Assembly (NCBI GenBank): GCA_001804315.1
Contig: MHFT01000024.1
Coordinates: forward strand, 13,610-77,609
From: Omnitrophica bacterium RIFCSPLOWO2_12_FULL_50_11
GTDB taxonomy: Bacteria > Omnitrophota > Omnitrophia > Omnitrophales > Danuiimicrobiaceae
Direction of reading: 5' to 3'
DNA: 64,000 nt
Positions within the stretch are counted from its first letter, which is position 1; every line of letters begins with the position of its first letter. This document shows, one piece after another, positions 3,860 to 35,700 of the stretch. The notes under the pieces are model-generated. The model was not told where the DNA came from. It was given only the letters and a program-made list of their open reading frames with translations, and ran no database searches. The translations under genes and the position numbers were made by a program.

Positions 3860-4878
3860 GATTTGCGGCTTGCAAAAGGTAGGGATTCCACTTTGGCGGC
3901 GACGGTTTTCTCCTGCGTCTGGATTGCAACTTCACAACCGACATCCCAAAACCCTTTTTTGACGTAACCAAGCGCGATCACTTTTTGAAGCGCCGGCGAA
4001 AATGCGCCGCTTGTAACGGTGCCTGCCTCTTGGCCTTCCGTTAAAATTCGGTCGTTTTTTTGCGGGATCGTTTCACCGTCGATCACCAAACCGACCAATT
4101 TCTTACTTACCCCTCCCCTGGAATCGAGCCGCGCCAGGATTTCTTGCCCAGGAAAGCAGCCCTTTGTGAAACTCACGGTTTGGTTGAGCCGTGCTTCCAG
4201 CGGAATATGGGACTCATCAAAGTCAATTCCGTAGCGCGGGATTCCCGCTTCAATGCGAAGGGTTTCCAACGCTTCTGCTTGAATCGTGGCTAATCCGAAG
4301 GGCACTCCTTTTGACTCAATTTCCTCCCGGACTTTCCCCGCCTGATTTTTTGGAATTAAAAATGCGTATCCAATTTCAGCAATTATATTGATTCGGATCA
4401 CGACCGCCGTAACAGGGCCAATCGCGATGCTCTTGTGATCCAATAATTCTGCCGTCACATCTTGCGCGGCCTGTGCCGCGAACAGATCTCCCAACAAATC
4501 TTTTGCTCTCGGTCCGTGGACCGAAATTAACTTTAATGTATCCGAACGGTCCGTTAATATAACTTCTTCGGTAAAAATCAGTTGGGCCAAGTGTTCGAGG
4601 ACTTTGTCCTTGAGGACATAATCCATTGCAAGCCACAGGTGTTCGTCGAAACAGAGTACATTCATACTGGCAATGATTTTGGCTTGGGCAGTCAGGAAGC
4701 AAGATGGATTTCCTTTGCCGGGCTGAAGGCTTTTCACGTCGCTTGAGAGGATATTGTGCAGGAACTGAACGCGATCCCGACCCGAAACTTCAATCACGCC
4801 GCGGTTCGGATGGTCGAACAACACACAATTCTTCCTCGCCGCGAGGCATTGTTCGGAAATTTGGCGGGTTACTCGCAT
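3856..4878 (-). CDS. Folate-binding aminomethyltransferase-family protein (YgfZ/GcvT-like)
   Basis: 340 aa. CVLFDHPNRGVIEVSGRDRVQFLHNILSSDVKSL matches the N-terminal signature of GcvT/YgfZ; the length fits YgfZ-type proteins. Confidence 0.7.
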   Translation of the reverse strand: MRVTRQISEQCLAARKNCVLFDHPNRGVIEVSGRDRVQFLHNILSSDVKSLQPGKGNPSCFLTAQAKIIASMNVLCFDEHLWLAMDYVLKDKVLEHLAQLIFTEEVILTDRSDTLKLISVHGPRAKDLLGDLFAAQAAQDVTAELLDHKSIAIGPVTAVVIRINIIAEIGYAFLIPKNQAGKVREEIESKGVPFGLATIQAEALETLRIEAGIPRYGIDFDESHIPLEARLNQTVSFTKGCFPGQEILARLDSRGGVSKKLVGLVIDGETIPQKNDRILTEGQEAGTVTSGAFSPALQKVIALGYVKKGFWDVGCEVAIQTQEKTVAAKVESLPFASRKS

Positions 4879-5976: not shown

Positions 5977-6534
5977 ATGCCAAAATTAGAAGACCTGAAA
6001 GCCGAGCTGCTCCCGTTAATCAAAAAGCACGCGCACATCAAACTTCCGGAGCCGATCAAACTTTCTTCTGGGAAGATGAGCGACCAATATTTTGACGGGC
6101 GCAAGATCACGCTTCATCCTCAAGGAATCACACTCTTTGCGCGCGCGATTTTAGAAATGATCAAGCCGGCCGATTTTGACGCGGTGGGCGGGCCGAGTCT
6201 CGGCGCGGATCCGATTGCGACAGCAGTTTCTATTTTTGCCTTCCTCGACCGGAAAATCAAACTTCCGGCGTTTCTCATCCGCAGCGTACAAAAACCATAC
6301 GGCCTGCAAAAACAAGTCGAGGGCGCGGAACTAAAGCCGGGCATGACGGTGCTCATCGTTGAGGACGTGATGACAACAGGCAAATCGATTCGAAGCGCGA
6401 TTGAAGTGGTGGAACAAACAGGTGCCAAAGTCGGTCAGATTATTTGTTTGATTGACCGCAATGAAGGCGGCAGGGAAGCGCTTGCATCGTACCAGTTAAG
6501 CCCATTATTTACAAAAGATGAGATTGGAGCGTGA
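5977..6534 (+). CDS. pyrE: Orotate phosphoribosyltransferase
   Basis: PRTase motif VLIVEDVMTTGKSIRSAIEVVEQTGAKV; LSSGKMSDQYFDGRKI is OPRTase-like. The start is set at the ATG at 5977 (MPKLEDLK); the ORF-track start at 5908 overlaps mutY. Confidence 0.75.
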   Translation: MPKLEDLKAELLPLIKKHAHIKLPEPIKLSSGKMSDQYFDGRKITLHPQGITLFARAILEMIKPADFDAVGGPSLGADPIATAVSIFAFLDRKIKLPAFLIRSVQKPYGLQKQVEGAELKPGMTVLIVEDVMTTGKSIRSAIEVVEQTGAKVGQIICLIDRNEGGREALASYQLSPLFTKDEIGA

Positions 6535-14729: not shown

Positions 14730-14758
14730 TTGAAAATGAACTTTTTTTAATGTATAAT
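14730..14758 (+). promoter_or_regulatory. Near-consensus sigma-70 promoter TTGAAA-17-TATAAT driving the giant ORF
   Basis: TTGAAA at 14730-14735, a 17-nt spacer, TATAAT at 14753-14758, and GGGAGG at 14784-14789 eight nt before the GTG start at 14798. Confidence 0.5.
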
Positions 14759-14797: not shown

Positions 14798-17700
14798 GTG
14801 GAAGCCAGCTTAAAAGGCCAGGTTTTACCACATAACGCTCGGTGCTTTAGAAAGTCATTTTGGAGAGCGACGGCTTGCGTCGTCTTATTTTCTTTCGCGA
14901 CTACAACTGTCGCTTGGTCCGATCCTGGCTTTGGTTCACTCGACCCCTCTTCCTCTTATTCATCTTTTGCACAACACTCCCTCATTAACCCATTGAGAAA
15001 TATTGATCTCCCAGAGCGTCTTGGGAAGATCGACGAACTGTTCCTCCCAGAGAGAGTCTCTCCCGATTCTCCGTTCGTCGTCTACCTCCAAGACGCTCAC
15101 TCTAACCTCGGGGCTCAGCGCCGCATTGCGGAGGTGGCGCGCGAGCTGAGCGACAAGCTCCAAATCGAGGCCATCCTTGTTGAAGGCGGCACAGGCGAAG
15201 CCGATCTTGCGGATCTAAGATCGTTTCCGGATCAAGAAGTTAAAGAGCGCGCAACCGAATTTTGGCTCAAAGAGGCGATGCTCAGTGGAATTGAACGGGA
15301 AGCGATTGTCGGTCCAAAAGTCTACCGCTTCTTTGGCGTGGAGGACGAAGCACTTTACGAAGCAGGGGGGCGTAATTTTATTGAGGCACAAACCCGCTCG
15401 CAGCCCTTTTTGACTTCGCTCAAACCGCTGGTTCAAGAAAACGGCGAAAATAGGAGGCAATACCTTAACAAGAAGCTCTACGAGTTCGAAGAACGGGTCT
15501 CTCAGTTTGAGGAAAAGAACGAACTGATTGCCCTTGTCAGTTTTCTTGCGAGTAAAGCGCGTAACCTTCACATCAACCGCTGGAAATATCTCGAAATCGA
15601 AAAGTTAATCGACCTCATTCTGCTTGAAATGGAGGGGGGAAATAGTGAGCGCTTTTTCGAAATTCAAGAAATGCTCGATTCAAGAAAACTTTTCCGCGAG
15701 TTGGATTCCTTGAAGTCGGAAGTTAAGGAACGGTTGTTTCAAACGGACGCCGAGCGCGCCATTGACGAAGAGCACCAAGCGCTAAAAGCGTTGCAAGCGA
15801 TCGTATCACTTAAAGCAACCCCCGACGATTTTGATTATTTCCGCAAGCGCCGCGAATTGATCAAGAAGTATGCGCAGAGGGCAAAATTAGATTCCGAAGC
15901 GCTTGCGTCTGCCGAGGCCTTTTACCGATCTGCGCAGGAACGCGATCGGAAAATATTCGAAAATATCCAGGCGATTCTCGGCGAAAACGGAATCAAACGC
16001 GCGATTTTAGTGACCGGTGGCTTCCACGCTCCCGGAATCACAACCGAATTCCGTAAGCACAAAATTCCATACGTTCTGATCTCGCCCAAATTTTCTGACG
16101 AGGACAATTACTCGAACTATCTCGCACGCGTTTCCGGCAAACGTGCGAGTCTCGACGAATTCAAATCGAAGCATTCTAACCGTCATCTGGAAGGAAGCCT
16201 TAACGGAGTCGTCATCCTGAGGCAACGATCCAAAGAGGTGCCGAAGGATCCCGGTCGGGATTCGTCTTCCAAGGAGCCTGCCCTGAGGACGGGATCCTTC
16301 GGGCCTTCGGCCCTCAGGATGACGTCCGAAAGAGGGCTTCCCAATGACGGCGCATCTCATTCCCACGCCGCGGCGCACGCTGTTTTCAACCGCGCCGAAC
16401 TCCGCGTCATTCGTGAGTCATTTGAGTGGTTAAGAGAGGGTGTAAGTTCGGCCGAGAGTGCCACTTCTCCTCAGACAGGTTTACGACGCGCCGAAACGCG
16501 AACAGAAAAACCAAAACTTCGATTTACTTTGCGAAGTTTAATCTTTTGGGTGATTTGCTATGCCTTAATGTTAGCGTTTATCAAAGCGGTTTTTGGCGAG
16601 GTAGAGTGGGGAGAAGCGCTAGGAGTAATGTTAGGTGTAGGTGTATTGGCTAGGCTTTTTCACTTAGAGTATGTGGATCTATTCGACCTGACTGAAGGGG
16701 CTGGCATTGAAAAGTCAATTGACCGCAGATTCGGATTGAAAAGGGAATCACGCGATCTCGATCCGAAAAAGGACGGAGCGGAAAGCGGTCGTGACCCAGA
16801 GGAACCACCGTCCGAAAACGCGGATCCGGACCGCCGCGCAGAGATGCGTAGAGAAATTCAGGTGGAGGCTACAACGGCGGAAGATGGACGGAAAAGCGGC
16901 GACATCGCAGGCGCGGTCGATTCTCTTCCACCTTCCACCCTCCAGCTTCCAGTTTCTTATCGCCAAGCGGAAGTGCGGGCAGAAAGGAACGCCGAAGACG
17001 GAAACAAGGAGCGGAATCAGATTCCGATTTTGGATTCGAGACAGGCCACTCGTTTGGAAAGACCGGGAAGAGCGACGCGAACGGCACTTTCAACTCCCGA
17101 TAGACGGTTTTCGACAAAGAAGAGGCGATCTTCTACCGCAGAGAGACGTTCTTCTACTGCTGAGAAACGGTTGGGAAGGGGCCCAACGCCCTCCACAACA
17201 GCACGAAACTGGCCTCGAAGATCTTCGATCAATGTCCCTACTTCTGTGACGGTATATGAATCAGCCCTTTTTTTTGGCTTGGTAGGATTACCTTTGCTCA
17301 TTTCAAATCTCCTTGAGGATCATTTTGTGGGAACGGAAGGAATGGAAAGCACTGTATCAAGGCTGCCACAAGATGTCAAGGCGCCTTTTCAAAAATCGCA
17401 CCGCGCTGAAATCCGAAGTCGATCCGGCAGGGAGGACGGTTCGGAAATCAAAGCGACAAGCTCAGAGGAAGGACAAAACATCCGATCCGTCCGTTCGGAT
17501 AAAATGCAATGGCTTACAGTTAGCATTTTGCTTCCAGCCGTCACATTGGGCTTAGGGATCGGGGCAACTTTTCTGACCAAACGTTTCGAATCGCTTCCCG
17601 TTTCGATTTTATTCGTGAGGGGGATGCAATATATTTTGGGCACATTCGCAGACATAGGAATGAGTGCTGCTGCGAATTATGTTGGTCAGTGGCGTAAATT

Positions 17701-20700
17701 TAGGAGTAAGGCCAGCTGGGCGAGGGCAGTCCGTTTTGGCTTAATTATCCAAGTCGGTTTCTCGATCTGGTTTTTCGTCAAGCCGCGGCTTAGGATTCGA
17801 CTGGACCACTACGGGTCTGTCATGATGGTTGCTGCCGATACGGTGATTAGTTTGTTTACCCATCGTTTGTTGCTTCATTTGCTATATAGATCCGAGAGGT
17901 TATCTAAAGACGAGATTCGCGAAAAGATGAAAAACACATTTTGGCCTTCTTATGGGATGTTGGCGGGCGTGTGGGGCATTTTCAATTTAGGCATTTATGC
18001 TATTCCAAAAGATTGGGCCTTCGTTATTCCTATTATTTCATCGGTCGTGGCTTTTGTGAACAAAGTTATTTTGTCAGCTTATCTATATCGATCATCTTCC
18101 CGGACACTGATGATGAAGTTTGGGGGGACTTTCGGCTTGGTAGCTCCGATCATAAGCTTTGTTGCGATGGGTTCAGTCATCGGGCTTGACTTTTCATTTC
18201 GGCACGTGATTTTTGGGGGATTGAGTGGATGGTTAGTCGGAAGTGCGTTCGTTTACTTTGCAAAAAAATACTGGGGCTCAATCCAAACTGAAGGTGACGC
18301 GCTTCAAACGGGACCGGCATCTACAGGCAATGTCAATGATTTCCGGCCTGAGGTGCGGGGCAATGAGAAATTGAGTCGCACGCGGTGGGTCCGGCCATCT
18401 TGGATTGATTCGACCAGCTTGTTTTCACCGGCGGAAAGAAAACTCATTCGGGAACGCGGTCAATTGCTCAAGTTCGTGTACCCGCGCTTGAGCGAGAATG
18501 CGAAAAAAGTATTACTTTACCCTTCCTTCTTGCCCGTCTTTATGGGCGTCAAGCCGGCGTACCTGCGTATTACAGACCTTATTACTGGCCGCAAAGAACC
18601 GGATCCTATGATCCTTGCGAGAGAATTGAAAGATATTCCCAAGGCTTGGGATCAACTTGGGATAACGTTCAACGACATCAGAGCGATGTTAGTATTCGAT
18701 GTTTTTGATCAACTCAAGGCGCACATGAAACTTTTAAAAGACTTTGGTGTCCTGCCGCGCTATCCAAACGTCGACCTGATGAGCGAAGAGTGGAAAAGCT
18801 ATCAACCGAGCAAGTGGCAGGCGTTATCGGAAGAATTGGAATTGTTCATTGACGACTTAGACGACAATGTTGAGGTTAGTCAGAGTGCTGGGCATGTTCT
18901 TAACGGCATTGTCTTAGGTTATCCGGTGGCGGAAGTTCAGGCTCTAGGCGAATACATAACGGGCTTTTCGGTGAGTGTAACGCGGCTGTCGACAGAGTTT
19001 GAAGGCATTGAGCTCTTCGTTCGACTAGGAGAAAAGGGAGAAATTGCAGACGAAACGCATCGCTATCTCGCGCGGATGACCGATGCGCTTTATTATGCCT
19101 ATTCACTCCTACAGGAAAATGAGGACTTCGCGAGCATAGCTCAGGAACTCAACCTTCCCCCTAGAGTTCTTTCAGCCGAAGCTCCTGAGTCGATTGTCAG
19201 CCGTGGCGAACTTAGGCAAAGCGATTTTTTCAGGTCTGAGGTGCGGGGAAAAGAAAACGCTCAAGATTTACAATTGTATATTCGGCGTGCTCGCCATCCA
19301 GAGGTTCAAAGCGGAGAAACGAGTGATCAGGCGCCGGATTCTGCCGCCGTCAGCCTGTTGCCAATACCGCGAATTTCTTCTTTGAGCTCAGACCGCGTTT
19401 CTCCAAGTTCAGTCCGAGTATCACGGAGGTCCTTGGAGAGTTTTGACACGGCGTCTTCAAGGCGAGATGCTTTACCGTTGAGGACGTTGATTCGGAGTTC
19501 GATCGTATCTAGCCTTCGGCTGTTGCCGTGGACAGTTACCTCGAGCCGTTCCATCCTCGTATCGAGACCTGACTGGCCCTCAGCGAGGGTATCAAATTTC
19601 TTGTCCAATGCTTCCAGAAGTGTGCCCACTTCCGTGACTGAATATGAATCAGCCATTTTCTTTGGCTTGGTAGGATTACCTTTGCTCATTTCAAATCTCC
19701 TTGAGGATCAATTTGTGGGAACGGCAGGAATGGAAAGCAAGGTATCAGAGCGGCCACAAGATGTCAAGGTGCCTTTTGATGCCGGGCGCAAGACCGGAAT
19801 TGCGAACCCCAAAATCTTCTCCTCTCCCCTGTCGGGGGAGAGGATTTCCGCCAAAGGACGCGGCGGATCCGCCGCGCTGTATGGCGGAAAGGTGAGGGGG
19901 ACGAGTGAAAATAACTTGAACATCCACCCTCACCCAACCCTCTCCCTCCAATGGAGAGAGAGGGGAAAAGACTACAGCTACGGTCTTGTGACTTTTGATG
20001 CCGCCCGGCGTGCGGAGACCCGCGATCGAGTGCGGAATCCGGAGTTCAGGGTGCGGAGTGGACTTAAGTTCGGGAGTTCGCCCGTTCCGCACTCCGCACT
20101 CCGCATTTCCAACTCAAATCGGCGGGCCGAAGCGCGGGCAGAGAGCGATGGAGATCAACTTGTCAAACGATTCACAAGGTTAAGGGGGATGAATCTTTTG
20201 AGAGCTTTACCTGAATTAAACGGCGCGGTTCGACGGAAAGATTTGCCGGCTCGCACTTTGGAGAAGCTGAAAGAACAGCGCCGGATTAGGTATGTTCCTT
20301 ATGTACGCGGAGCGCTCAAAAGGCTCGCACGGAATTTAAGGAGCGAATTTCCAAAGGGGCGTGAGCTCATGAAAGCAGTTGCGGATGCATCAGGTGATCC
20401 TGAACTCTATGACCGTTCGGATGCCCTTCCGTTGCGAATTCTCCAGCAAATCGATCAACGAAAAGCGTGGGAGAGGGTGGCCTCTAACGACAACGTCGCA
20501 GAGCTTCTCCTCCGCGCGAAAGAAGCATTTGATCGGTATATGAGCACTGATGACGCATGGCTTTCAGAACATCTGCCTGAACTCAAGGATAAAAGGGCCG
20601 CCTACTTTTCGGCTGAATTTGCGGTTCCGCCGCTCCCGATATACACCGGCGGAATGGGGGTGCTGGCGGCTGATATCGTGGCGAGCGCGAGTGATCTGAG

Positions 20701-23700
20701 GATTCCGCTCACAGCGGTTGGACTTTTTTATCAGCTTGGCTACTTTCGGCAGCTCATCAGACCGTCTGGCGAGCAAGAGGAAGATAGAAGTTATGCCGGT
20801 ATCCGGAGAGATAAACGGACAGGACGGCCGCTTGATTTGCCGGTCGAAGATCCAAGAACAGGACATCCACTCATCCTGCAAATGAGAATGCCGACTGGAG
20901 GCCGTGTCGTCAAGGCAAAAGTCTGGAAGGCGCGGTTAGGAAAGGTCGATTTATTGCTTCTCGATACCAACTTGAAGGAGGAATGGGCAAACTGGAACAA
21001 CGCGTGGAATGAAGGTACAGACCTCTCTATCACAGAACAAGCTTATCGGGAACATTCGGGAACGCAGGAGCGCATGGAACAATATTTCGTGCTCGGCGTC
21101 GGCGGAATAAAGGCGCTAAAAGCATTAGGTCAAGAACCAGATGTCATCCATCTCAATGACGGCCATCCAGTATTTGCGGCCATTTCTGCTCTTGCCCAAG
21201 CGTTGGCGCGTGTGCCTCGCGCGATAGAAGATCCCAAGCTCCGGTTTGACGCAGCGCTTGAAGTAGTTCGAGCAAAGACGATCTTTACGACCCACACGCC
21301 GGTTCCTGCCGGAAATGAAGCGGTGCCGGAACATGTGATCCGCCCCTTCTTGGAGATACTTTTTCCTGGGGGAAAAGAAGTCGATCAATATGCGGTGGAT
21401 CGAATCCTCGAAATGGGACGGGCAGACGGCAACTTTAACATCACCAAATTTTCATTGCTGGTTTCAGGATTTCACAATGCCGTGAGCAAACTTCACGGCG
21501 AGGTAGCACGCAAGATGTGGCAAGGTCTTTACCCTGCTGTCCCGACAGAAGATGTTCCCATCAAAGCGATTGTCAATTCAGTTCACACGGGCGACGGCGA
21601 GCGGGAAGGAAAGTGGCAAGCTCCCCAAATTGCGGAACTGCTTCAAGAAACCTACCAGACTGCTGAAGTCCAGCGAGTAATGCACCTCGAACGAGACGAG
21701 ATGATGCGGTATCTTACGGATAACAAATGGCTGGACCAAAACGTTCCTGTTTCAACGCGAGAAAAGTTGTGGGCCGTCCATGTCGGTGTTACGAAGCTGC
21801 TCTTTAATGAGGCCGAGAAGCGGTTTACAAGGCAGGCCGCGCGGGGCGACGCGTCGCGGGAAGATTTGGCTTATCTGAAAAGTCTTGACCCACAGGCGCT
21901 CACGCTTGGTTATGCGAGGCGGTTTGCTGGGTATAAAAGGCCTGATCTCATTTTTCTAGATTTGGAGCGCTTAAGATCTATCGCCGCGAAGTCACAAGGG
22001 CTAGTACAAATCATATTTGCAGGAAAAGCTCATCCCAGAGATGACGTGGGCAAACGGTTAGTTGCTCGTGTAAATCAAATAGCGCGTGAGTTACGCAAGG
22101 AAAAGAAAATCAAAGTCATTTTCATCGAGGACTATGACGTAGCGCTGGCTCGATTGCTCGTTGCCGGAGTGCACGTTTGGCTTAACAATCCGATCCTGAA
22201 ACAAGAGGCGTCTGGAACAAGCGGACAGAAAGCACTTCTAAATGGGGTGCTGAATCTCACGATCCCCGATGGGTGGGCAGAGGGCATTGTAGACGGCGTC
22301 AACAGTTGGAAGTTTGGCGGAACGGACGTCGGGGACATCGATGCCAAGGATGCAGCTGCGCTTTACGACAAGTTGGAGAAGGAAGTGATTCCCACTTTTG
22401 ATAACAATCGGGAGGAATGGATCCGCATGATGATCCGGGGCATTCTTTCTATCGCGCATCATCACGGAGGCGAGCGGCTGCTTTTAGACTACGGCCGGGA
22501 ACTGTATGTGCCTGCTGTCAATTCAAGCGCGATGATCACGTCAGGCAACAATATTCTGACAAAGTTGCTTGCATACCGCGCGAAATCTAGCGTGGAAGAA
22601 GGAATGCTTTTTTATCTCCGGCTTCCACCCGAAGCCGAGGCAGAAAGGGTGTATTGGGCAAATAGAATTACGAACTGGGACTCTCAAGAAGATTTCGCGC
22701 TTGAGAAAATATCAGACGGCGTGTGGGCCATCGTGATTCCCGCAGAGAAAGTAGCTGGCGGTGATGTGGACTTTAAATTTATGGTATTTCCGGATCGAAA
22801 AGTCCACGGCGCGAGTAGGCCCATTTGGCTGCGGGGCGGATATCCTAACAGTTTGCGCAGCGGCATTTATCAGAATGGAAGCGTCAAAGTTGACATGGAC
22901 CACCCTTTGTTTCGTCGGGACGCAGCTCGAAAGCTGCTTGCTGCCATTCGCTCCGAAGCGCGGGATGATTGGACTGAGAGACTCGAAAACGTCATGAAGG
23001 AAATGTCCTACGTGCCGAAGTGGTTGAATGATCCAAAGTATTCGACACGTCCCGCTGTATCTCCCAAAGAGATCATTCTTCAGAGCGAAAAATTCGCCCG
23101 TTTCGCCGAAAGCCTCGCACCGGTTTTGACGCAAAAGCGTAGAGAAAAGTACGTCATGCGGCACGGGGTGAATGCATTGTCGCCTCTGAGATCTTTTGAT
23201 TTTCCTCCTCCCCTCCGGGAAGATTCCTACGGCGGCGCCGAAATCATCCTCAAAGAGGGATTTGACTGGAGCCGATTGACAGCCGGCGGGGTCATGGCCA
23301 ACATCGGGCCGTGGGAAGGCACCAAGATAACGGAAGCTGCCATCCTGGAATTTGATTTTGAAGGGGATGTCTTCACGAGCCTCGGCGCCGGCACTGACGT
23401 TAAGGATCAGCTGAGAAAATTTTTCGACACGAGCCTAGACGAAATCCATCTGCCCGAAGAACCACCTTTCTATCGGGGGCGGGGCGATCTTTTTAATTAT
23501 CTCCTCATCCTTTTATTACGTTTGTACGGAATCGACGGCGTGAATTTCGCTTATCCGGCCAAGGAATCCAACGAACCCAGATCTTTCGAATTTCTCGTGA
23601 CCCACCCCAAAGCCATCAGCCACATCCGGCTTGTTACCAGAAAACCCGGGCCAACGATTTCCAAGGAAAGAGAATCCGGCCCCCCCTCCGAAGTGCGTAC

Positions 23701-26700
23701 GGAGATTGTGCCGGAAGAGCTTGTCAAGGTTCGCTCACAGCTTGAGTATGAGCGAAGTGGCACTGGAGAAGTGTTGAATGTAAAGCCGGGAGGAATTCCT
23801 TCAGAATCGCGGAAACGAGGCCGGGAGTTTGCTTTTGACCTACGGCTGAATGCGGAGTCTCAAAACAGGAAAGCGGTCCAAAGAATCGCAGGCTTTCAGA
23901 AGAGGTTAGAAAAAATTGTCACTGCCGCCGAGCTTTTTATTCTTCCGAAAGATGCCTTCCACATTGCGTTAGGTGGCTTCTATCCTGGCGAAAGCTGGGA
24001 TTTGGATTCAAATGGGCCGATAGATTTACCAGAGGATGCGGTTGAGAACGCCCTAACCCTCTTCCAGCAAAAGCTCAATACCGCCTTCAAAGATTCGCCT
24101 GAACTCATCATTGCCATCATCGGCGCAAGGATGACAAATAATGGAACCGTGGTTCTTGATTTGAAAGAACATCATGGTGGAAAACTTGCCGGACTCCGTG
24201 GGCTGGCCTATTCCGCAATGGAGGAAGCGAACTGGCCGCCAGGAAAGTTTCGAATCAACCGCTCGAAGGATGGACAGGTAAGCGACAGCGGAATTGTGAC
24301 CTTGGCCCGGGTCATTCCTCACCCCGACAAAGATGAACCCTTGTCAAGCTCAGAGACGCTAATGCGAGTAGAAGGCAAAATTACCAAAATGGATCGTGAG
24401 CTGAAAAACAGTCCAATCACTCTCCGGTTCACTCAAGAAGATCAAGAAATAGCTCGGCTTGGAACGCGTGTTTTAATCGAAGAGATTGAGGGTTGGGCAT
24501 CCACAAATGATTTTTTGAAAGAGCGTGCGGATGAAATCGTCAAGCTTACTGCGAATGGTTTTGCCCACGAGACCTACGAAGCGGTCCGCCAAATAGAAGC
24601 AATGGATTGGGGAAGAAGAAAAGGGATTTATTCTCCTCAACAAGTTCAAAAAGATCTTCAAGGCGAACCTCCAGGAAGTCTATTGATGCTAAAGAGGCAA
24701 AGGCACAATCAAATACTTGCCACGCACGGAGAAAGGGTTGCACTTCTTGAGCTCGAATTGCGTCATTTGAGCGTCTTGACACTTTCACTCGCGTTAAAAG
24801 GAATCCCCATGGATGTGGCAAGGAGCAGCCATTATTACTATCTTTTACTTGAGATTGAGCGGTTCAAAAATTCCAACGGTATCGAGGGCCTTAACCCTGA
24901 GTTCATTTCTCCGGCGCAACAGATACTTGTCTTGAACGAGATAGCGAAATCTCAACTTCGTGGTGCACGGGAGCAACTTGGCAGACAAATCGCAGAGCAC
25001 TTAGACACCATTAGTTTTCGCTCGTCTGCCGAACGACTGTTACCCGAAATAGAAAAAATCATCGCGAGCTGGGAGGAACGTTATGTGAGAACAAAGCTTG
25101 AGCATGCTGTGTTGCAGGTAATTGGTCCCCTGAGACTAACTCGGGCGGCAGGAAAAAAGGTAAAAGATGAGATATCCCGTAGAAAAGTCGAGATCGTCGC
25201 ACACGTGGTGCGACAACTCACCCCAGACGTATTAAGTGGCCGTCGCATAACGACAAATAAGATTCGCGACGCCCTTAGAAGTAGCGGTCTCAGTTTTGAC
25301 CGTGTGAACCGGCTCAATCGTCCGGTGCGGTCCGGTATCACGAAGAAAGTCGACGAAATAGTGTTCAACATTGAAGAAAGCACGCACCGCTTGAAATTTC
25401 GTTCTGCGTTCCAAAACCCCCGCTCGGAAGCAAGGTGGCTCATAATGGCTGCGAAGATCGTTCTTATGGTCGCGGTTTTCGGTGCTCTGGGCTATTGGGC
25501 GCTCCGCGACACCAAAGATGATTGGGCCAAGGAGTTTAGTCAAATGACGGAACTTATTAAGGAGACCACCTCGACAGATGTTTTAATTGACATCGTGCGA
25601 GATACTCAAAATAACAGCATCCACCGCTGGTATGCGGTAAGACGATTAGTCGAAGCAGCCACAGTTAATGAATCTCTGAGAAAGGAAGTGGTGCCGGTGC
25701 TCATGGAAGAAATTACCCGCTATCTCAAAAAGGAGCTGGATCCACAGACGATGGTTGCGTCATGGGGGGTCGAGGTTGAGGCGATAGACGGTCTTGCCAA
25801 GTTCAAGGCGACGCGAGCAATCAACTTATTGAGACAAGTTTACACGGACGGCTCGGTCGATCAAACGGTGCGTGAAGCGGCGAGGGGAGCGGTAGAACAA
25901 TTGGAAGAGACACGATCCGGCCGCTCCAGAGTACAAGAAGGTCAATTGGACAGAGAAGAAAAATTGAAAACGTCTGGCCCGAGGAGCTCAAGATCCGAAA
26001 TTCGTAGTGAAATCGTCACTCCAAAGACGAAACTTGAAGAGAGGGGTACCCTTATTTTCCGCCGTATTCGGTATGAAATAGAGCAGATCATCCACGTGGC
26101 TGGAGATGATTTCATCCTGTTAAGAGCGAAAAAGAAGTACGCAGGGCAAAAGAGACAAAGGAGGGTTGACCGTCCCATTCATATTTCCAGAAGTAAGAGC
26201 GAGGTTACGAGCGGCCCTCTTTTACGAGTTTCCCTCAATGATGGAAACTGGAGTTACATTTCACCCAAGCGTGCTGAGGTGCGATCGCCGCAACAGAAGA
26301 AAAAAATAAAATACCCTGCCATTCATATACCCCTTGGAACGTATTTAAGGGTTTATTCTGGAATTTTTCTTCCGGCGATCTTTTTCATACTTAATGTATT
26401 AACCGTCGTAAAACTCGGGGCCCAGCTGGCAGGGGCGAAGATTTTGAATGGCCTCCCATTGGACGCTGTGATCACCGCATACGGGATTATTTTAGTCCCA
26501 GCCATCATCCATTTCGCAATGGAAAAATCTGTTTGGCTTCGGAAACGACAGCGTGCGCGAGAAGATCGGAGAAAAGCCGCTGGTATGCGCGGTGAGTCAC
26601 GCTCCCAGTCTGTTGAAGGCCGTGAACGTGCGAATGGAGATATTGGAGAACCAAAACAATCTGCAGTTCGAGACTCGGCGGACCGTGCGGAACTGCGAGC

Positions 26701-29700
26701 AGAATGGAAAGGTAAGAGTATTTTCGAAATTGGATTCGAAGCCAGTCTAATTCCTCGGGAGTTTAATTTGTTAGTGGATGCCGCGGTTAAGGGATTTAGC
26801 AATCTCAACGAGGCCGAACGAAATCAAGTGAAAAAGGTTCTTCGGAAGATTTTCGAAAAATTGGGCTTGCTCGAAACGGAAAAGCAAGAGGAGCGGCGCC
26901 GATTCCTGAGTCAAATCAGCGCGCTCATGATAAAGCTCAAAGCGCGGGGAAAGTTAGACAAATTAAAGTCAACGTTTCAAAAGAAATACTTGGACGAGAC
27001 ATCGTTCAAATTGGAGCGTGAGGTCAAAGTGTCAGGGCTTCAAACCGGTGATCAGGTACAGGAAGCAGCGGCGGAAATATCCGATGAAGAGCCTCTGGGC
27101 GCTTTGAGAAAATTGCTTGCTAAAAAACCCCGTGGGATTGAGGAAGCATATGCCTTGTCTATTTCACGAGGCGCATCTTTAGAAGAGGTTCGGAGGACAC
27201 TCAAAGAAGCTGGCTATGAGATGACGCAATGGAGACGCGACGGGTTGCTCGGCCTCTTTCGATTTAAACGAAATGTGTGGTTGAAAGTGCAAGAGCCCCG
27301 CCGGGCCGAGGTGCGGCACGAGCTGGTGCAGAGTGTGGAATTCGGAGTGCGAAGCAGACGCGAACGAGACGACTCGATCATTCCGTATTCCGCACTCTCC
27401 ATTCCGCACTCGGAAACACGGGCTGAGATGCGGGGACAATTGGAAGAAGATTGGAAAATAGCACGTTCTGCTGTGTGGTTTTTTTTGAGGAGAGGGGTTT
27501 ATTTTAAGCAGGACATCGAAGATGCTTTTCAGGATATCCATCTTGCGTTTGCGGAGGAGAGGCAGAAGGGAAAACCCTTATCAGAACTGGAGCTGAGAAA
27601 GATTGCTCTGGCCGCCCTTTCAAAACATGTGAGGGATTATCATAAGTACAAGCGTGTGGTTAGAGGGTTTCAAGCTGCATATAGATCGCTCGTCACAAAG
27701 CGCCGCGGCCCACGTCCTATGCTTGATGATGTCGATCTCTTGATACCTGAGGTAGGGGAAGAGACATTTGGGGACAGGCTTAGATCTCATTTCAGAAGGC
27801 GAGGGTGGTCCCAGCGACGAGGAGCGCGTGAATTAGGATTTTCGTACGGCTCCATTAAACCGTGGATATCAGGTAAGATTCCAAGCCCATTCTTTGTGAA
27901 ACGGCTTGCGACCGCACTGGACACGACGGTAAGTGAGTTGATGATAGGAATACCTAGGGAAGAGTTGCTCGCCATCAGGATTGAAGATGAAGAAAGTGGC
28001 GAATACAGAAAAATCTTGGGGTTGAAGGTCAAAGTTTTGAGATATGAAAAAGGATGGACAAAAAGCAGGCTTGCTCGCGAGGTGGGTATCAAGGATAACA
28101 CCATTATCAGACTGGAGGCAGGCGAACCTACGTTTCCCTATCGGTACATTGGAAAACTTGCCGAAACGCTGGGTACGACGATAGGCGATCTTATTGCAGG
28201 AATGCCTGACGAAAAAATAATGGCTATTCGTGTTTTTGACGAGAAAAGCGAGGAGCATCGTGAACTCTTTGGGCTCAAATTAAGAGTCCTCAGATATAGG
28301 CGAAGATTATCTCAGACCGGTTTCCAGGGCCAGAGTAGCACCTCCGCATGGGAAAGTGGGAAATGGTTCCCCTATCCCAGAAGCATGAAAATCATTGCGC
28401 GCAACTTAAAAACAACTGTGAGCGAACTTTTAGCCGGCATACCTGAAGAGAAGTTAATGAGCATGCGGGTCCGAGACGAGAAAAGCCGGGAAGCAAAACA
28501 AATTCTTGGATTAAAGATCAAAATTTTTAGATACAAACGGGGTTGGACCTTAACCGAACTTGCTCAAGAAATGCACGTGCATGTTGATACGGCTTCAGAT
28601 TGGGAAGCCGGACTGCACTTCCCTGCGATACGGCATTTCAAACAGCTAGCAGAACGACTGAATTCTACGGTGAGCCATCTTCTGGTGGGTTTGCCCGCAG
28701 AGGAGATAAAAACAAGATTAAAAAATGGCAATGACCCGGACTATGCCGACCTATTCAATCTCATGATCCGGGTTGTAAGATACGAGAACGGTTGGTCATC
28801 GGGCAAGCTCGGCGCTGAAGTTGGGATTCCTCGGGTAACCATCGATGGATGGTCATGGAGTCGAGCAGTTCCCGCCCCTAACAATTGGAAAAAATTGACT
28901 ACTGGAAAAGGGCACGTTCTTTTCGGTGACTACCTTCCTCCGTCACGGCCGAAACCCACAGAGCTTGATGAGACAGAACGTAAAGTTCATGAACTGTATC
29001 AACAACTAGGTCGATACAGTTCTGTCGCCAGAGCAATGGGATGGCAAGGAGCAGCAGGCGGCGTGAGGGCCCGGCACATATACCTGCGGTCTCTTCGGAA
29101 ATTGGGGGCTCAGAGCCGCGCTGAGGTGCGGAACGAACTGGTGCGGAATGCGGAATTCGGAGTGCGGAGTGGACGTCAACTCGAAGACTTGATCATTCCG
29201 CATTCCGCCCTCCCCATTCTGTACTCGGAACCACGGCCTGAACTGCGGATGGGGCTGGAAGAGATCGCGATCTATGAGGAAGACGTGGATCTCGAAGCGT
29301 ATCAGCGCGTGATGCGTTCTGCCGAGGTCCGTTTCTTAACGCGTGAGGAGGAAAAGATCCTTTTTCGTGCCCTTCATGCTCGAAATCTAAAAGGAGAAGA
29401 GCGCAGGACTCTCTTTGACTTTCTAGTCTTGAAATATCTTCCTAGGATTAAACGCGTGATCCGTAAACTCGTACGCGGTGAGGGGCGAGACAAGGACAAT
29501 ATGTATCAGGACGGTTCTTTGGGGTTAATGGAAGCAGTCTGTCGTTTTGATTACCGTCTCGGGACGAGGTTTGGTACATTTGCCGACTGGTGGATATGGG
29601 GCAAAATTCTAATCGGTTTGAATGACTTAGCCACTGGAAAGTTACCGTCTCAGGAGCGGGAACTCGTCCCCGCAATCTTGAGCTCTCAACAGGAATTAAC

Positions 29701-32700
29701 ACAGCTTTTCAAGCGTGAACCCACCATGGAGGAATTGGCCAAAGCGCTAGGGGAAGAGGAAAAAACGGTGATCCGCATCCTTTCCTTCTTCTCACGGGCA
29801 AAGTCCTTAGATGCCCCAGCAGGGAACGGTGAATTAAACCGCTATCAATTCCGCTCGGATCCAAAAGCGGAAACTCCGGAGGCGATCGCGGTTCGTGAGG
29901 AAGAACACCGCGAGATAGTCCCAGAGATTTCAAGAAGGCTAGCCCTTCTTTCCTCTTACCAGCAGCTCGTCATCAAACTGCGGTTTGGAATTGGCACGCA
30001 AAAAGAGGGCGGTTATACACTCGACGAGATTGGAACAATGCTGGGGGTCACAAGAGAGAACATCCGTCAGATCGAAGATCGTGCAATCAAAAATATGCGC
30101 AGCAACACTATTTCAGACGCCAAGACTCGTCCCGTATCCACTGAACATGGTGATGTTTACCTTGTGGAAGTCGTCGGCATAAAGCCGGATCATCCTGTTT
30201 TTGAGGACATGCGGCTCAAGCCACTTATCGAGATAAAAGAGCTTTACGAAAGGGGCTTTTTTGCCAATTTCATTCCGGCACAAAACTTGACGATGGGCAG
30301 GGTCAGAAATGTTAAGCCTCGTGTCGGCTACCGGAGACGCGTAGCGGCAACGGCCCGAGCAGCCGCTCACCGTGCTGAGGCGCGCAGTGGAAGCGTGAGG
30401 GAGTATGCGACGTGGGATCACTTCCATAGCTTGATTCATGTCCTCGCGATAGATAGCGAGGAAAAGAATCGGCTGGAAGCGTATAAGCGATTGAGAGAGC
30501 TAGCATTGTTTCAACCGTTCCACTTTGGCCTTGCTTTGGTGCGGCATGTCGGAGGTGAAATAGCTTCTTATGCTAAATCCATTTTGCTGGAGGTTGCGTG
30601 GGAAAACCCAGAGATCATGACTGGACCCATTGTGAGCTCACTTGAAGATCCGAGTCGGAATCCGCATGCTGAAGAACTTCTCGGCCAGTGGATTGACCTC
30701 ATCATCAAAAAGAAAGATCGAAACAAACTCAGTATTGTTGCCCGGCCTCTGATCGGCATCTTAGCTCTTGAGATAGCCCGCCCTGCTGCCGAAAGATTGA
30801 TTCAAAAAATTGCTCTTTTTGATCTCGGTGTAATTGTGAATCGATTCATGGGGGCACTCAAAGATCCCGCGAGGCGGGCGATCGTCGGGCACCTCCTTGT
30901 AGTCATTAGCCGTTATTCTGCTGGCGCAGCAAAGTTCGTCACCGAAACTGTCATTGAAAATCTTTATGACAATGAAATCGCCGAATACCTTATAGAAGTA
31001 CTTCTTGAGATTTCCAAGGATGCGGGCGAAAAGACGGTAAAACATATTTTGTGGTTATTAATGGATGTTTTGCATTTTGAGGATTACCTGAAGCGGGTTC
31101 GTTTTGTTCCGTTCAAGGAACGGCTAAGAGAAAATAAGGGAGATTTCCGTCGAAACGCAGCCGCGGTTTTATCGAGAATGCTGGTGACATATCCGGTCGA
31201 AACAGTGCACATTGTAGTCGGCCATGCTTTGAATCATGACGTCCGGCAGTACGCCGACGAAATCCTCGCTGAAATCGAGGATAAACAACCCCAGATTCTT
31301 ACTGATTCCTATGTGGCAGCTCAGGGCCGAATGAGTCCAAATGAATTTGTGGAAAGCGAGTTGATTCGTCTCGCTGCATCACATCGAGGGCCTATCCTCA
31401 ACTCGCTCATCAAATCGCTTAAGAGACAATCAAAAGCTCCGGCCTTAGTTTCGCTTCTGATAAAGATGGCGCGGTCTAACTCTGAGCTTTCAGGTTTCAT
31501 TCAAGAGCGCCTCAAGTCTGCGATGTCTGAGGTGCCGACGCATCGGAACCTCGATCGCTTCGGTCAACAAATTCTTGCCCAAATCCAGTCCCGCAATGAA
31601 GTGCGATTGGGATTAAATTTGGCCAAGGAGAGAAAAGTACTGCTCTCGGGAAATGCCAGCCGTGCGGAGGTTATTCAAAATGATGAAAACGGGCACAGCC
31701 CGATATTGAGGAATGACGATCGGACGGCTGACGCCAGGCTTGATGTAAACAAGGTGGTCGCCAGTTTGACGCACACGCCGAAAACCGGCCAATTCGAAGA
31801 CTCGACAAAGGTTTTGATACGGAATCGGAGTGATGCGGCTCATGGAGCAGGAGACGATTTAGAAAGTGACTTCGCTATGCTCGGTAGCAATAAGAGGAGG
31901 AGAAGTCCATTCGGTTCCAGCCGGATCTCGGGCAATGAAACCTTCTTCTTGAAGAATGTCCTTGAGCGTTCCCATTCTGGAACTTTCCTCAAGGAACAGC
32001 CGAACCGCTTCCATAAGCCTGCGCCGCGCATCGTCCACCGTATCTCCGCAGCTGGCAACGGACAATTCTGGGCAGACACTGACAAACGTCGGCCCCTCTC
32101 TAAAAATCAAGGAAGTGAATTCAATCTTTCTCATGGCATTCAAACTATAACACAGAACCGGGATGCCGTAAAGCAGCCCTCTTACCGCTCTGCAGTGCGT
32201 GAAAAATTCAGGGGAGAGGCGAGAGAGGAGAGGGAAGAGAAAAAGCGCTTACCTCTTACCGCTTCTCTCTCGCCTCTCACCACTCACCTCTCCCCTGATT
32301 CTTCCCGCCCCGCGGCACGCAAACGAGTGCGAAGCGGACATGAACTCGAAGACTCGATCATTCCGCATTCCAGACTTCCCAATCCGCACTCGGAAACACC
32401 GGCTGACGCGCGGGATCTCGTAGTTGCGCATGACGAATTGCCAGTGACGAAAGGTAGAAGACCTTGGCAGTACGAACGCGCGGATCTAAGGCACCGAGCG
32501 CGCTCTAGAGGTGTGAGTGCTTTTCGCGGCGGCGGCCCTGCCAATCGAGAAAGACAATTCCGAGAATTATTACAAGCAGGATCACAGCAAGAAACACAAC
32601 ATTCGCTGTTGCTCCATCCATTTTTGTTTCCTCTCGTCAGGATTGATCCAGAGAATGAAGGCAAAAGCAACAAGATAAATTATAACCCCGGCCACCAGAA

Positions 32701-35700
32701 GAAACAAGACAGGTCCGACTTGTTGGGCGCATCCGACTTCATACAGTTGTCATCGCGAGGCCAGCATCCCAAGAATGGGCTGAAGCAATACGATGCCTCC
32801 GTCATTACGAGGAAGCGTAGGGGCAATGACGAAGTAATCTCGGATGCGAGATTACTTCGTCATCCCTTGGGGTTGCTTCCTCGCAATGACGGTCAGGATG
32901 CAATTGCTTCGTCAACGCCTGGTCCGCTGCCTCGCGATAACGTTGGCATTGCTGCATCGAGCGGGATACGCGCCGCGGTGCAGAGTGGACAGGAACTGGA
33001 AGACTTGATCATTCCGCATTCCGCACTCCCCATTCCGCACTTGGAAACACGGCCTGAGGTGCGGAGCGGGGACAAATCACGAGGGGATGCGAGCGCTCCT
33101 CCTGACCGTGTCAAACAATGGGAAGAGAATATCGGTGCCGTGAAAAGGATGTTGAGCAAGTTTTTTCAGGAAGGCAATGACCTAAATTATGCCTTGCTTT
33201 TGTTTGGAAACATCCTCGTGAACGATCCCGTTAGAATCGATTACATGGAGAAATTGATGAATGCTTTGAAGAAACAAAAGGGGCCTCGTAGAGACAAAAA
33301 CGCAAGACACGGCGTAGAGCTTACGCCTGACGATCTTAGAGATTTGCTCGATTGGGTAATCGGAGACGTCGCCTATTTAAGCTCTCCGCCTAATAGGAAG
33401 GACGACGGACCTGTTATGTGGATGTGGGTTCCATACAGAGACCTACCCGAAGAACTCATAACCGAAATTGTGAAATATCGAACGCCTAAAAAGAATTTTG
33501 ATGATGCGGCTGACGCATGGAGAGCATATCAGGCGCAGGGTGATAAGAAGCTAATCGGATTTAAGTCATTCTATGATAAGCACTTTAAAAAAAGAGGGGC
33601 GATGGCGTCTGGCGATCAGGCTTTTGATTCGTATTCGTTTCATTTTTTACCTACGAGAAAGCATGATGATTTGAAACTAGGGATTGACACTGACTGGGCC
33701 GGCAGAGGATTGGGCAGAGGATTGGTTGCGTTCAGGGACGTACCTCGAGGTCGAAAACTTGTTGTAAATCGGCTCCGGCAATCTGAACAGGTTTATGGAA
33801 TGTCTCAACATTTGTTTTACATTGAATTAGAGCACGTCAAAAATCGGCTTATTGTTCACACCCACCAACACGGCGGTAGTCGGACGAGTCAATTGAGGAC
33901 TTCCGATCGTGAGTTGTATGATTACTTGAAACATGTACCGGATAAAGCCTTCGCTTTGTTAATAGACCGACTGGATGAGGTACTTGCAGCTTTAGGATGG
34001 TCGGCAGCCGATCAAATCCAGGATTTTGAGATTGTCTCAGCCAGCAAGGTCGCTTATGAATGGTCCACGGTCTCGGCCTCAACGGTTATGACAGCTTATA
34101 TGGATTTTCCACAGCGCCTTGGATTTCATATGGTAGAACGTAAGCCCAATGAGATCCGGAATGCGCCAGGCGACCAAGCCATGTGGAGAGAAAGCGTGTG
34201 GTACTGGAGCCGGCCGCTTGCGGATATGAAGAAACCTCCGAAAGTTCAGATCGAGACGCCGTCTTCTTTCCGTCCGGAAGTGAGAATCCTGGAGACGCGG
34301 GCTGAGGTGCGGGAAACAAAAGTAAGAAGCACGAAGCTGGAAGCAGGAGCGCAAAAGTCTCTCGCTTCAGGCCTCGCGTTTCACGCCGGCGGCAAAGCCG
34401 CCTCCCGCTCTGAAATGCGGATAAATCCGAGGAGCACTGAGGAATTGCGCGAACAGTTGATGACTCTTGTAAGGGAGATCGTCATTCTGCTTGATCTTCT
34501 CACGGTAGATCCCCGTCGGGAGAACCGGAAGGAACTTGAAACCGAGATTACGGAGCTGAGAAGGCAGCTCAGTGAACAAAAAGAGTTTGTGAACGAAGAT
34601 CAACATCAAATCTTTGACAAGCTTGTGGGAGAAGTTAAATCGCTCATTGATTTAGTATCGGCTTCCAAGCTGCCTCTTTCTACTCAATTGATACGAGAAC
34701 ATACTCAGCGTATTTACAGTAACATCCAAGAGCTGGAATTTAAGCCTACGGGGGAACAAAAAGATGCAATAAGTGCGGAAACAGAACGCTTCGAGCTCGC
34801 GAAGTTGATTAGAGCTAAGGATGTCGAGGGTATTGCTGACATGCTTTCGAGAAGCGACGAGGTGCCAATAAAGGTAGATGCGATCAGGGCACTGGGTCTA
34901 TTGAAGGCCAGTCAATATGCAGATTTGATCGTTCCATACTTAACCTTTTTCACACCACCCTTCGGCGAGGGTGTGCGGCTGACTGCAATTACTGCATTAA
35001 GAAATTTAAATGCAAAACAATATCTAACTGAGATTGCGAAGAAATTCACAGATCCCACACTAAGCGTTCGCAGTAGGGCAGCCGGAGTGATTGGGGCATT
35101 CGGGGATCCAACATACATCCCCCAACTGAAGGAACTATTGAATGACAAATCCGCCGCGGTGCGGCTTGCAGCGGCAAAAGCTTTGCAGAAATTCGGAGTG
35201 GACATTCCTGAAGAATACCGCTCCGAAGCGCGGAGCAATGATGATGTCTTTATGAGGATCGCAGCTTCTTTGCCAGAGGAGTGGCGGGAAAAAATTCAAG
35301 CAGTGCAGACAAAACCAGCTAACAGGGATGTTTTCCCCTCGTGGATACAAGCGCTGAATGAAGCGGAAGCGACGCGCCTACACTCCATTCTAACGGATCG
35401 CGTGCCAGTAGATGTAATTGAGTCCTTTTTCCTGAACAGCCCGCACTTTCTTGCAAGCGATCCCGATCAGCGTCATCAAGTGGCAGTTTCGATTGCAGAG
35501 ACGCTAGAGGATGTACGTCGGCTTTTAAGATCTTGGATTGAAGAGCTGGATCGCGACCCGCATGCGCGACGTCCTGCAGCGATCCCTGCGCGCCAGATGA
35601 CCACCCCTGCTGAGACAAGAGGTGTCCGGCCGCAAGAAGAACGAGAAGAGTGGGTATCAGAGGAGGAAGCTGCCAGACGCGCGCGCTTCATTGAGTGGGC

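Follow-up and report, generated by a model that had tools for sequence, protein, structure and literature searches.

A motif-bounded alpha-glucan phosphorylase and CBM48-type domain within a giant open reading frame of an Omnitrophota bacterium

The window analysed here is a stretch of 64,000 nucleotides (nt) from Omnitrophica bacterium RIFCSPLOWO2_12_FULL_50_11 (contig MHFT01000024.1, positions 13,610 to 77,609 of the forward strand), and it contains a giant open reading frame (ORF) of several thousand codons. Homology and alignment evidence shows one segment of this ORF, the phosphorylase cassette, to correspond to a complete α-1,4-glucan phosphorylase dependent on pyridoxal 5'-phosphate (PLP), of the DUF3417/TIGR02094 branch of GT35, with a divergent CBM48 domain at its C-terminal side. 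The cassette lies between RAEAR and RSEAR, two copies of a five-residue motif that recurs along the giant ORF, and we give an even chance to the reading that the phosphorylase is made within a long polypeptide and released at these flanking sites. Omnitrophota are known to have giant ORFs (Seymour et al. 2023, PMC10066038), and a more recent preprint describes a 'multi-enzyme metabolic' class of giants in which sugar-metabolism modules are common (Nielsen & Lui 2026, bioRxiv 10.64898/2026.06.07.730766). Post-translational cleavage of giant proteins has been proposed, with the cleavage points stated to be unknown (West-Roberts et al. 2023, bioRxiv 10.1101/2023.11.21.568195). The phosphorylase is thus a diverged form of a known enzyme family in a known type of gene, and it is the organisation around it that carries the interest of the present analysis.

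An earlier reading of the letters of the window alone, hereafter the original prediction, had proposed an intact GT35 enzyme with a DUF3417-like lead-in and a retained catalytic lysine at 20190-22850. The module covers positions 2-599 of the 600 of the NCBIfam model TIGR02094 ('alpha-glucan family phosphorylase') and scores 516.1 bits where the cut-off is 191.7, and both Pfam profiles scored above their gathering scores (GA), PF00343 at 86.2 bits (GA 27) and PF11897, the DUF3417 family, at 45.9 bits (GA 25). In a collection of 5.8 billion proteins the module has 6,583 relatives, the best of them with E-values from 2.7e-165 to 1e-119, and the solved alpha-glucan family phosphorylase 9l6i of the PDB aligns over module residues 73-818 (E = 3.9e-92); from this end-to-end alignment we infer a GT-B fold of two Rossmann domains for the catalytic domain. 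Identity and lead-in therefore stand as predicted, and so does the place of the module, although its natural limits, 20138-22948 between RAEAR and RSEAR, are slightly wider. The DUF3417 region is divergent, the Trp-rich LAYNLWWSW of the family being LARNLRSEF here, including the change W70E. When GTDB genomes and JGI metagenomes were scanned with the module, only stand-alone phosphorylases were found (28-39% identity), with no close relative and no second copy of the locus.

To locate the catalytic residues, we aligned the module with 45 homologues. Across these 46 sequences 84 columns are invariant, and all 84 are by definition present in the module, so that no loss of family-invariant residues appears on alignment. 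They include, in the PLP motif, E690, G693, T694, S695, G696 and K698, with A691 and S692 likewise present; in the phosphate block, R594-R595 and Y599-K600-R601; and, elsewhere, T384-H386-T387-P388, N340, H343 and the G171-G172 loop. The string EASGTSGQKALLNG (aa 2470-2483, nt 22205-22246; aa, amino acids) begins with EASGTSGQK, which holds the lysine of the original prediction, K2478 of the giant ORF, invariant in all 46 sequences. These motifs line up with the kR-hEYKR and EASGT-NMK (EASGT(G/S)NMK) blocks of classical glycogen and maltodextrin phosphorylases. We take their counterparts in rabbit muscle glycogen phosphorylase (GP) to be K680 for the PLP lysine and K568/R569/K574, H377, D339/H341 and G134-G135 for the phosphate and sugar ligands.

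The description of the module as functional rather than decayed fares less uniformly. It is favoured by the catalytic core and by a codon-usage score of 0.276 per codon for the cassette, compared with a mean of 0.283 in the flanking genes. On the other side, the module deviates at 47-50 of the ~205-210 columns in which stand-alone enzymes are at least 90% conserved (~24%), while ordinary members deviate at 0-18, and its identity to stand-alone enzymes is 35-41%, while the mean identity between these is 52%. The window copy has about 16 changes of its own at positions kept within its clade, for instance H180I, R296L, D679H and R687L/P688K, the last two beside the PLP motif. Such changes would suit a drifted pseudo-enzyme retained for glucan binding or scaffolding, a reading that we regard as quite unlikely. 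All family-invariant columns and the equivalents of the classical catalytic, PLP and phosphate ligands are retained, the TIGR02094 score lies far over the curated cut-off along the full model, and codon usage is normal. In addition, most of the divergence is common to a clade of six, formed by the window copy with P0001, P0215, P0216, P0217 and P0218, whose members share substitutions such as E316Y, E341D, D394E, T479V and G481S. P0216 (6,341 aa) and P0218 (5,821 aa) are giants, P0217 has 1,504 aa, and P0001 and P0215 are shorter records, P0001 being annotated as partial. Since the substitutions are shared by embedded copies with mutual identities of 36-48%, they point to a conserved specialised lineage and not to decay. 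Judged from these alignments, the catalytic core is intact and its lineage conserved, and enzyme activity is plausible.

The carbohydrate-binding-like segment that the original prediction had placed, by inference, after the catalytic domain is supported by both fold and homology. The segment, aa 2590-2717, contains the string WANRITNW...FKFMVF (aa 2620-2664, nt 22655-22789) and does not reach the gathering score of PF02922 or PF16561 in Pfam, giving a weak match to CBM53 (E 0.093); a word-indexed search with aa 2585-3546, which covers the CBM-like segment and the next cassette, returned nothing. It aligns, however, with the C-terminus of P0001 (pairwise E 7e-6), and a two-sequence profile searched against 1.84 billion representatives found 16 proteins, among them sequences with the textbook AMPK-beta/CBM48 signature 'VYLAGDFNNW...YKF'. 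A homologous domain follows GT35 in P0215-P0218 and precedes the GH77 and GDE_C (debranching-enzyme) regions in P0219 and P0220; in P0220 it reaches PF02922 CBM_48 (24.1 bits, GA 22.4), and in P0219 nearly so (20.5). An AlphaFold2 model built on a 12-sequence alignment predicts an eight-strand sandwich with a predicted local distance difference test score (pLDDT) of 89 and a predicted template modelling score (pTM) of 0.80. The top 39 Foldseek matches of this model in the PDB are all CBM48-bearing proteins, the best being the E. coli branching enzyme 4lq1 (E 8e-4, prob 1.0), SNF1 beta 2qlv_B, human GBE1, rice BEI and the pullulanase PulA, and all 12 sequences keep the Trp of the '..NW' strand, which is W37 in the segment. 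Model and homologues together support the assignment of aa 2590-2717 as a divergent CBM48.

Cassettes of related content occur in other giant Omnitrophota proteins. P0220 (aa 5040-6995) and P0219 carry motif-bounded CBM48, GH77 and amylo-1,6-glucosidase (debranching enzyme) cassettes, and P0218 (aa 2696-4331) a motif-bounded unit of GT1-like, GT35 and CBM48 domains. Counting also the starch-synthase and phosphoglucomutase cargo of the family described below, a good part of glycogen metabolism seems to be encoded within such giant genes.

The border motif, R-[A/S/P/G]-E-x-R, occurs at 26 sites in the giant ORF, where shuffled sequences lead one to expect 1.1; the remaining ORFs of the window, with 9,095 aa, have two. 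Phenylalanine is best excluded at position 4, since otherwise the homologous RPEFR found inside ordinary GT35 enzymes is matched (38 hits). The sites, for example those at window positions 16391, 18344, 20123, 22949, 27302, 29234, 33050 and 37052, divide the giant ORF into protein-sized pieces, and the recognised domains contain none; cassette borders all carry the form R-[S/A/P]-E-[V/L/M/A/I/T]-R. Median spacing in the family is 291 aa. Some sites are close pairs 4-5 aa apart, as in RGELR-QSDFF-RSEVR and RPEVR-ILET-RAEVR of the window ORF, and close sites are present in relatives too. No conservation was found outside the five residues in 231 instances. At 12.1% of sites a hydrophobic anchor-like segment begins in the 40 aa that follow the motif, compared with 4.5% at random positions (2.7-fold, p 7.5e-6), and hydrophobic segments are not enriched before it.

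Codons within the motif were counted in the window ORF, in the orthologous gene L087 (209-14149) and in L089 (412-12498). Synonymous codons vary freely; in relatives serine is written with both TCN and AGC and leucine with both CTN and TTG, and AGR codons occur for arginine. The constraint therefore acts mainly at the amino-acid level. Arginine usage is nevertheless biased, as AGR codons account for 13/122 of the motif arginines and 420/1287 elsewhere (p 9e-8), the first arginine prefers CGY (CGT/CGC), the fifth prefers CGR (CGG/CGA), and 18 of the 23 valines at position 4 are encoded by GTG. A small RNA hairpin was considered as the basis of the motif and rejected, because the register of the possible pairings shifts from site to site and because both codon families of Ser and of Leu are in use. 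Reassignment of a hidden stop codon was likewise rejected, given that all six Arg codons occur in the motif and that GAA and GAG are common everywhere.

The non-enzymatic parts of the giant ORF, used as search queries, retrieved 68 relatives, all of 1.8-5.7 kaa and all single giant genes, so that the family numbers at least 68. Most of the named relatives are Omnitrophota, and a few bear the label Elusimicrobia or Chlamydiota. The cargo of the 68 includes starch synthase, GT1, phosphoglucomutase, kinases, methyltransferases, histidine kinases and HEAT domains. The N-terminal head (aa ~20-460) is matched at or near the own N-terminus of 68 of 68, while the motif is present in 32 and in at least four copies in 20; P0144 has 19 copies, P0206 16 and P0161 14, with at most 0.3 expected in each. 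In P0150 the motif brackets a whole PAS-HK-REC unit and a PCMT unit, and in P0199 a Maf unit. P0144 is the syntenic orthologue of the window gene, with the same VitK2_biosynth and M24 peptidase genes downstream, and it has no phosphorylase cassette. Motif-delimited cassettes of P0144 and the window match end-to-end (for example, 3968-4168 with 2845-3037, and 6090-6491 with 3895-4289), and their order differs between the two proteins, with the motif conserved at the borders. This comparison shows that cassettes act as evolutionary units, swapped and reordered exactly at the motif.

If the giant ORF were an artefact of assembly or annotation, or were read with a reassigned code, the phosphorylase would be an ordinary separate gene, and one public scaffold, ANAN16-1_928, does call two genes here. 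We hold this to be highly improbable. The break in that scaffold is a run of 10 N with no frameshift, so that a split gene was rejected, and the same gene of 7,625 aa is called on the independent MEGAHIT contig ERZ27254759. Not one in-frame TAA, TAG or TGA occurs in 22.9 kb, even though spacer stretches score near zero for coding; the syntenic orthologue and the 68 relatives are also single giant genes; and, with six arginine codons in use in the motif, no single sense codon can be a hidden stop. Three stretches of low codon usage, 16835-17401 (aa 680-868), 19232-20008 (aa 1479-1737) and 32210-33049 (aa 5805-6084), are stop-free over 190-280 codons with scores of 0.03-0.09, which is near non-coding, against 0.28 for genes. 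Open frames of this length are very unlikely by chance, so read-through is apparently selected even where the peptide sequence is not. A GC-rich palindrome of 46 nt at 19845-19890 coincides with the 10-N gap of ANAN16-1_928 and is probably the reason for the assembly break. The part of the gene that was read back from ERZ27254759 (9.4 kb, window 28261-37675) differs from the window solely by 12 single-nucleotide polymorphisms (7 synonymous and 5 non-synonymous), all within the last 400 nt (37267-37645), that is, in the C-terminal tail, and this clustering suggests a recombination tract.

Under the release reading introduced above, the giant gene would be transcribed from a single promoter and the phosphorylase translated inside the long chain; cleavage or co-translational separation at RAEAR and RSEAR would then free a polypeptide of ~105 kDa. 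The freed phosphorylase would act in the cytoplasm, where, by homology, it would act on glycogen or maltodextrin by phosphorolysis and set their glucose units free as glucose-1-phosphate, while the CBM48 domain would hold it on the glucan polymer. Sigma factors, helix-turn-helix (HTH) repressors and PLP phosphorylases require the cytoplasm and free diffusion, and regulators of the first two kinds are encoded in the same ORF. Release is suggested because these proteins need to be free in the cytoplasm and because the motif is a short element with sharp limits that is at times repeated within a few residues and that precedes features resembling N-termini. A promoter-like site of the sigma-70 type just upstream of the ORF is the sole good candidate for expression of the phosphorylase cassette, and the ORF starts with a GTG codon preceded by a good Shine-Dalgarno (SD) sequence (pairing of -10.2 kcal/mol). 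Rfam and tRNA scans of the window were empty.

Several observations weigh against this reading. No dedicated protease is recognised in the giant ORF, whose sole hydrolase-like domain is the head. The head belongs to a fold family that is not exclusively proteolytic and, lying behind a Sec-type signal, is probably extracytoplasmic. In that case the motifs at aa 532 and 564, the first two of the ORF, would lie outside as well, and a single cytoplasmic protease does not explain them. RxExR is absent from about half of the head-family proteins. The arginine codon bias hints at a component at the nucleotide or translation level besides the peptide, and the unusual residues at positions 180, 296, 679, 687 and 688 of the module mean that its activity is not guaranteed.

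One alternative is that the cassette stays tethered as a domain of a very large, membrane-anchored multi-enzyme scaffold, in which RxExR would be a structural or docking linker. The giant ORF has ~12 hydrophobic segments, and the motif can sit in a helix, as the C-terminal helix of the CBM48 model continues straight into RSEAR. A reading of this kind is offered for 'TM-only' (transmembrane-only) multi-enzyme giants in the 2026 Omnitrophota preprint (bioRxiv 10.64898/2026.06.07.730766). We consider it rather improbable for the window ORF. Sigma-factor and XRE-HTH cassettes in the same polypeptide are hard to square with permanent membrane tethering, the exchange and reordering of cassettes falls exactly at the motif, motif pairs 4-5 aa apart look like redundant sites and not structural elements, and segments resembling N-terminal anchors follow the motif asymmetrically.

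A second alternative starts from the internal initiation site proposed in the original prediction, which had placed an ATG at 20195 behind an AAGGGGG run. The actual in-frame ATG is 6 nt away, at 20189-20191, and abuts the run. The phosphorylase could be translated alone from this ATG or from the TTG at 20198 by way of AAGGGGG, and the giant ORF would then resemble an operon without stops. Among 449 in-frame starts the TTG, 9 nt after the SD-like run, shows the most stable SD pairing, at -11.7 kcal/mol compared with -10.2 for the start of the ORF itself. It is placed 25 aa past the border and ~18 aa before the start of stand-alone homologues. Neighbouring genes with a recognisable SD, several of them GGAGG-like, have it at a spacing of ~5-8 nt. 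The ATG, by contrast, has a spacing of 0 nt, no promoter-like site occurs in 18500-23500 (3.4 expected), and the other cassettes have no strong SD-start pairs. Family-wide, methionine is not enriched after 206 cassette borders, which indicates that re-initiation is not a general route; chance alone would put the best SD no more than 30 aa from one of the borders in ~10% of cases; and internal initiation would not end translation at the end of the cassette. Internal translation of the phosphorylase is therefore unlikely in our view; the TTG at 20198 could be a real extra start or a relic.

Returning to release at the motif, a broader proposal, which we advance tentatively and at clearly less than an even chance, is that a bacterial polyprotein system uses R-[S/A]-E-x-R as its separation signal. 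A family of Omnitrophota giant genes would then be the equivalents of operons, with a head, interchangeable cassettes and sometimes a tail, and the motif would also be the place where cassettes are acquired, dropped or moved. Separation might be achieved by a protease or be coupled to translation. The codon-specific usage of arginine (CGY at the first position, CGR at the fifth, AGR depleted) keeps the translation-coupled route open.

Table 1. Coordinates of the giant ORF, the phosphorylase cassette and associated features in the window.
Feature	Position (nt)	Strand	Description
Sigma-70-like promoter	14730..14758	+	TTGAAA-17-TATAAT, 11/12 matches, ~40 nt 5' of giant ORF start
Giant ORF	14798..37675	+	7,625 aa, stop-free; head, ~20 cassettes and tail
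N-terminal head	14798..16390	+	aa 1-531; Sec-like signal/anchor, then EreA/ChaN/Tiki-like hydrolase-type fold with helical insert
In-frame hairpin element, ~134 nt	20005..20138	+	ATTCCGC/ACTCCGC heptads; directly 5' of phosphorylase cassette
Hairpin element copies (five)	20005-20138, 27300-27434, 29115-29249, 32280-32414, 32931-33065	+ (first copy)	Within the window, only inside the giant ORF
N-side border motif RAEAR	20123..20137	+	Flanks phosphorylase cassette
Phosphorylase cassette	20138..22948	+	aa 1781-2717 (937 aa); DUF3417 lead-in, GT35 catalytic domain, CBM48-like domain
SD-like AAGGGGG; in-frame ATG; in-frame TTG	20182..20188; 20189..20191; 20198..20200	+	Candidate internal start
DUF3417 (PF11897) region	20312..20626	+	Module residues 59-163
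GT35 catalytic region	20600..22510	+	TIGR02094 match, module residues 155-791
EASGTSGQK motif	22205..22231	+	PLP Schiff-base lysine K2478 (module K698) at nt 22229-22231
Divergent CBM48-type beta-sandwich and flanking helices	22565..22948	+	aa 2590-2717
C-side border motif RSEAR	22949..22963	+	Flanks phosphorylase cassette
C-terminal tail	37067..37672	+	aa 7424-7625; terminal also in P0144 (78% identity), P0145 and P0147

The remaining features of the giant ORF are listed with the cassette in Table 1. No Pfam or NCBIfam family covers the head, which has weak matches to Erythro_esteras and ChaN in Pfam. Its invariant residues are Q98, H101, E129, R382 and GGFH407-410 (including H410), in the motifs QDAH, EGG, RD and TGGFH. 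Its AlphaFold2 model has a pLDDT of 83.6 and a best fold match to the erythromycin esterase EreC (E 0.013, prob 0.96), with a TM-score of only 0.24-0.27.

Besides the phosphorylase, the cassettes hold membrane pieces, an orphan of 819 aa, an XRE-HTH array, sigma factors and HEAT modules. The regulators lie at 27434-30370 and 35234-37051 and comprise full sigma factors of RpoD-like and FliA/WhiG-like type, a third region-2-like stretch and 4-5 XRE-type HTH domains; their presence within the giant gene would be unexpected if the product remained in one piece. The orphan cassette, directly 3' of the phosphorylase (22964-25420, aa 2723-3541), has gene-like codon usage, but searches of the 5.8-billion-protein collection, of Pfam and of NCBIfam gave neither a homologue nor a family match; a DNA_methylase match in a precomputed table for a 2,040-aa fragment covering it was not reproduced. 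A direct repeat of 167 nt with 89% identity (17223-17389 and 19611-19777) encodes the same single-TM peptide (..YESA.FFGLVGLPLLISNLLED..) in two cassettes, and P0144 holds a cassette homologous to these.

The hairpin element directly before the phosphorylase cassette is flanked by RAETR (20009-20023) and RAEAR (20123-20137). Folding energies are -65 to -72 kcal/mol for the three best copies (19995-20145, 27295-27440 and 29110-29255), and the three copies with RxExR at both ends add 114-117 nt, or 38-39 codons. The element is absent from the orthologous gene L087. These elements look like in-frame insertions of the miniature inverted-repeat transposable element (MITE) type that duplicated the motif and are tolerated because the frame stays open. 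An analogy with integron attC sites was rejected, since the ends are direct and not inverted repeats and the elements are missing in the orthologue.

Comparison with known systems places the cassette among the DUF3417-type phosphorylases (TIGR02094; structures 9l6i and 20yr; NF041129 of Thermococcales), with which it shares the DUF3417 lead-in, EASGTSGxK, RR..YKR, THTP and N(E/D)GH. Unlike these, it lacks the C-terminal PF28476 domain of the ~850-aa forms, having CBM48 instead, and is embedded in a giant ORF without a stop codon of its own; against the Thermococcales maltodextrin phosphorylase equivalog NF041129 it scores 480, where the cut-off is 1500. Classical GT35 enzymes (TIGR02093; rabbit muscle GP, E. 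coli MalP) have the same motifs at the PLP lysine and at the phosphate-binding K/R-R..YKR, and these shared catalytic motifs suggest the same reaction chemistry. In contrast, only ~160 residues align with the classical forms, TIGR02093 gives 81 bits against a cut-off of 553, and the window enzyme has no sign of their allosteric or regulatory regions. The C-terminal segment resembles CBM48 of AMPK-beta/SNF1, branching enzymes and pullulanases in predicted fold, in the conserved 'NxW' Trp and in its association with glycogen enzymes, and differs from them in its flanking helices and in its position C-terminal to GT35, which is not the usual context.

At the level of the gene, the window ORF resembles the giant multi-enzyme ORFs of the same phylum, with many unrelated Pfam domains in one polypeptide and interspersed TM helices; its 22.9 kb satisfy the >20 kb limit of one catalogue (Seymour et al. 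2023), while its 7,625 aa fall short of the minimum of 10 kaa in another (Nielsen & Lui 2026). Eight proteins encoded near the giant ORF are identical to entries (OGX063xx) of Omnitrophica bacterium RIFCSPLOWO2_12_FULL_50_11. Viral polyproteins, such as those of picornaviruses and potyviruses, likewise combine one ORF, many complete proteins and a short recurrent linear motif. The likeness is an analogy only, since the window gene is cellular, the viral sites that are known do not resemble its motif, no cis protease is recognised in the ORF and the separation of its product is putative. Term searches of both giant-gene preprints (10.1101/2023.11.21.568195 and 10.64898/2026.06.07.730766) found no mention of GT35, of a shared head domain or of a border motif, and literature searches for DUF3417 and for the motif strings returned nothing relevant. 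To our knowledge, and on the evidence of these searches, neither the border motif nor the head-cassette-tail organisation has been described before.

Taken alone, the enzyme is of modest interest, and it is the cassette borders that make the question of whether giants are cut, and where, directly testable. A five-residue motif that brackets an assayable enzyme is a candidate for the cutting sites of giant proteins, and the phosphorylase-CBM48 cassette is an ideal reporter, as its expected size, cofactor and activity are known. Should the motif not be a separation signal, what stands is the description of a diverged GT35-CBM48 clade that recurs as cargo of giant genes. If the proposal is true, the motif would permit the in silico dissection of giant proteins for annotation and structure prediction, and these genes would represent a polyprotein-like gene organisation in bacteria.

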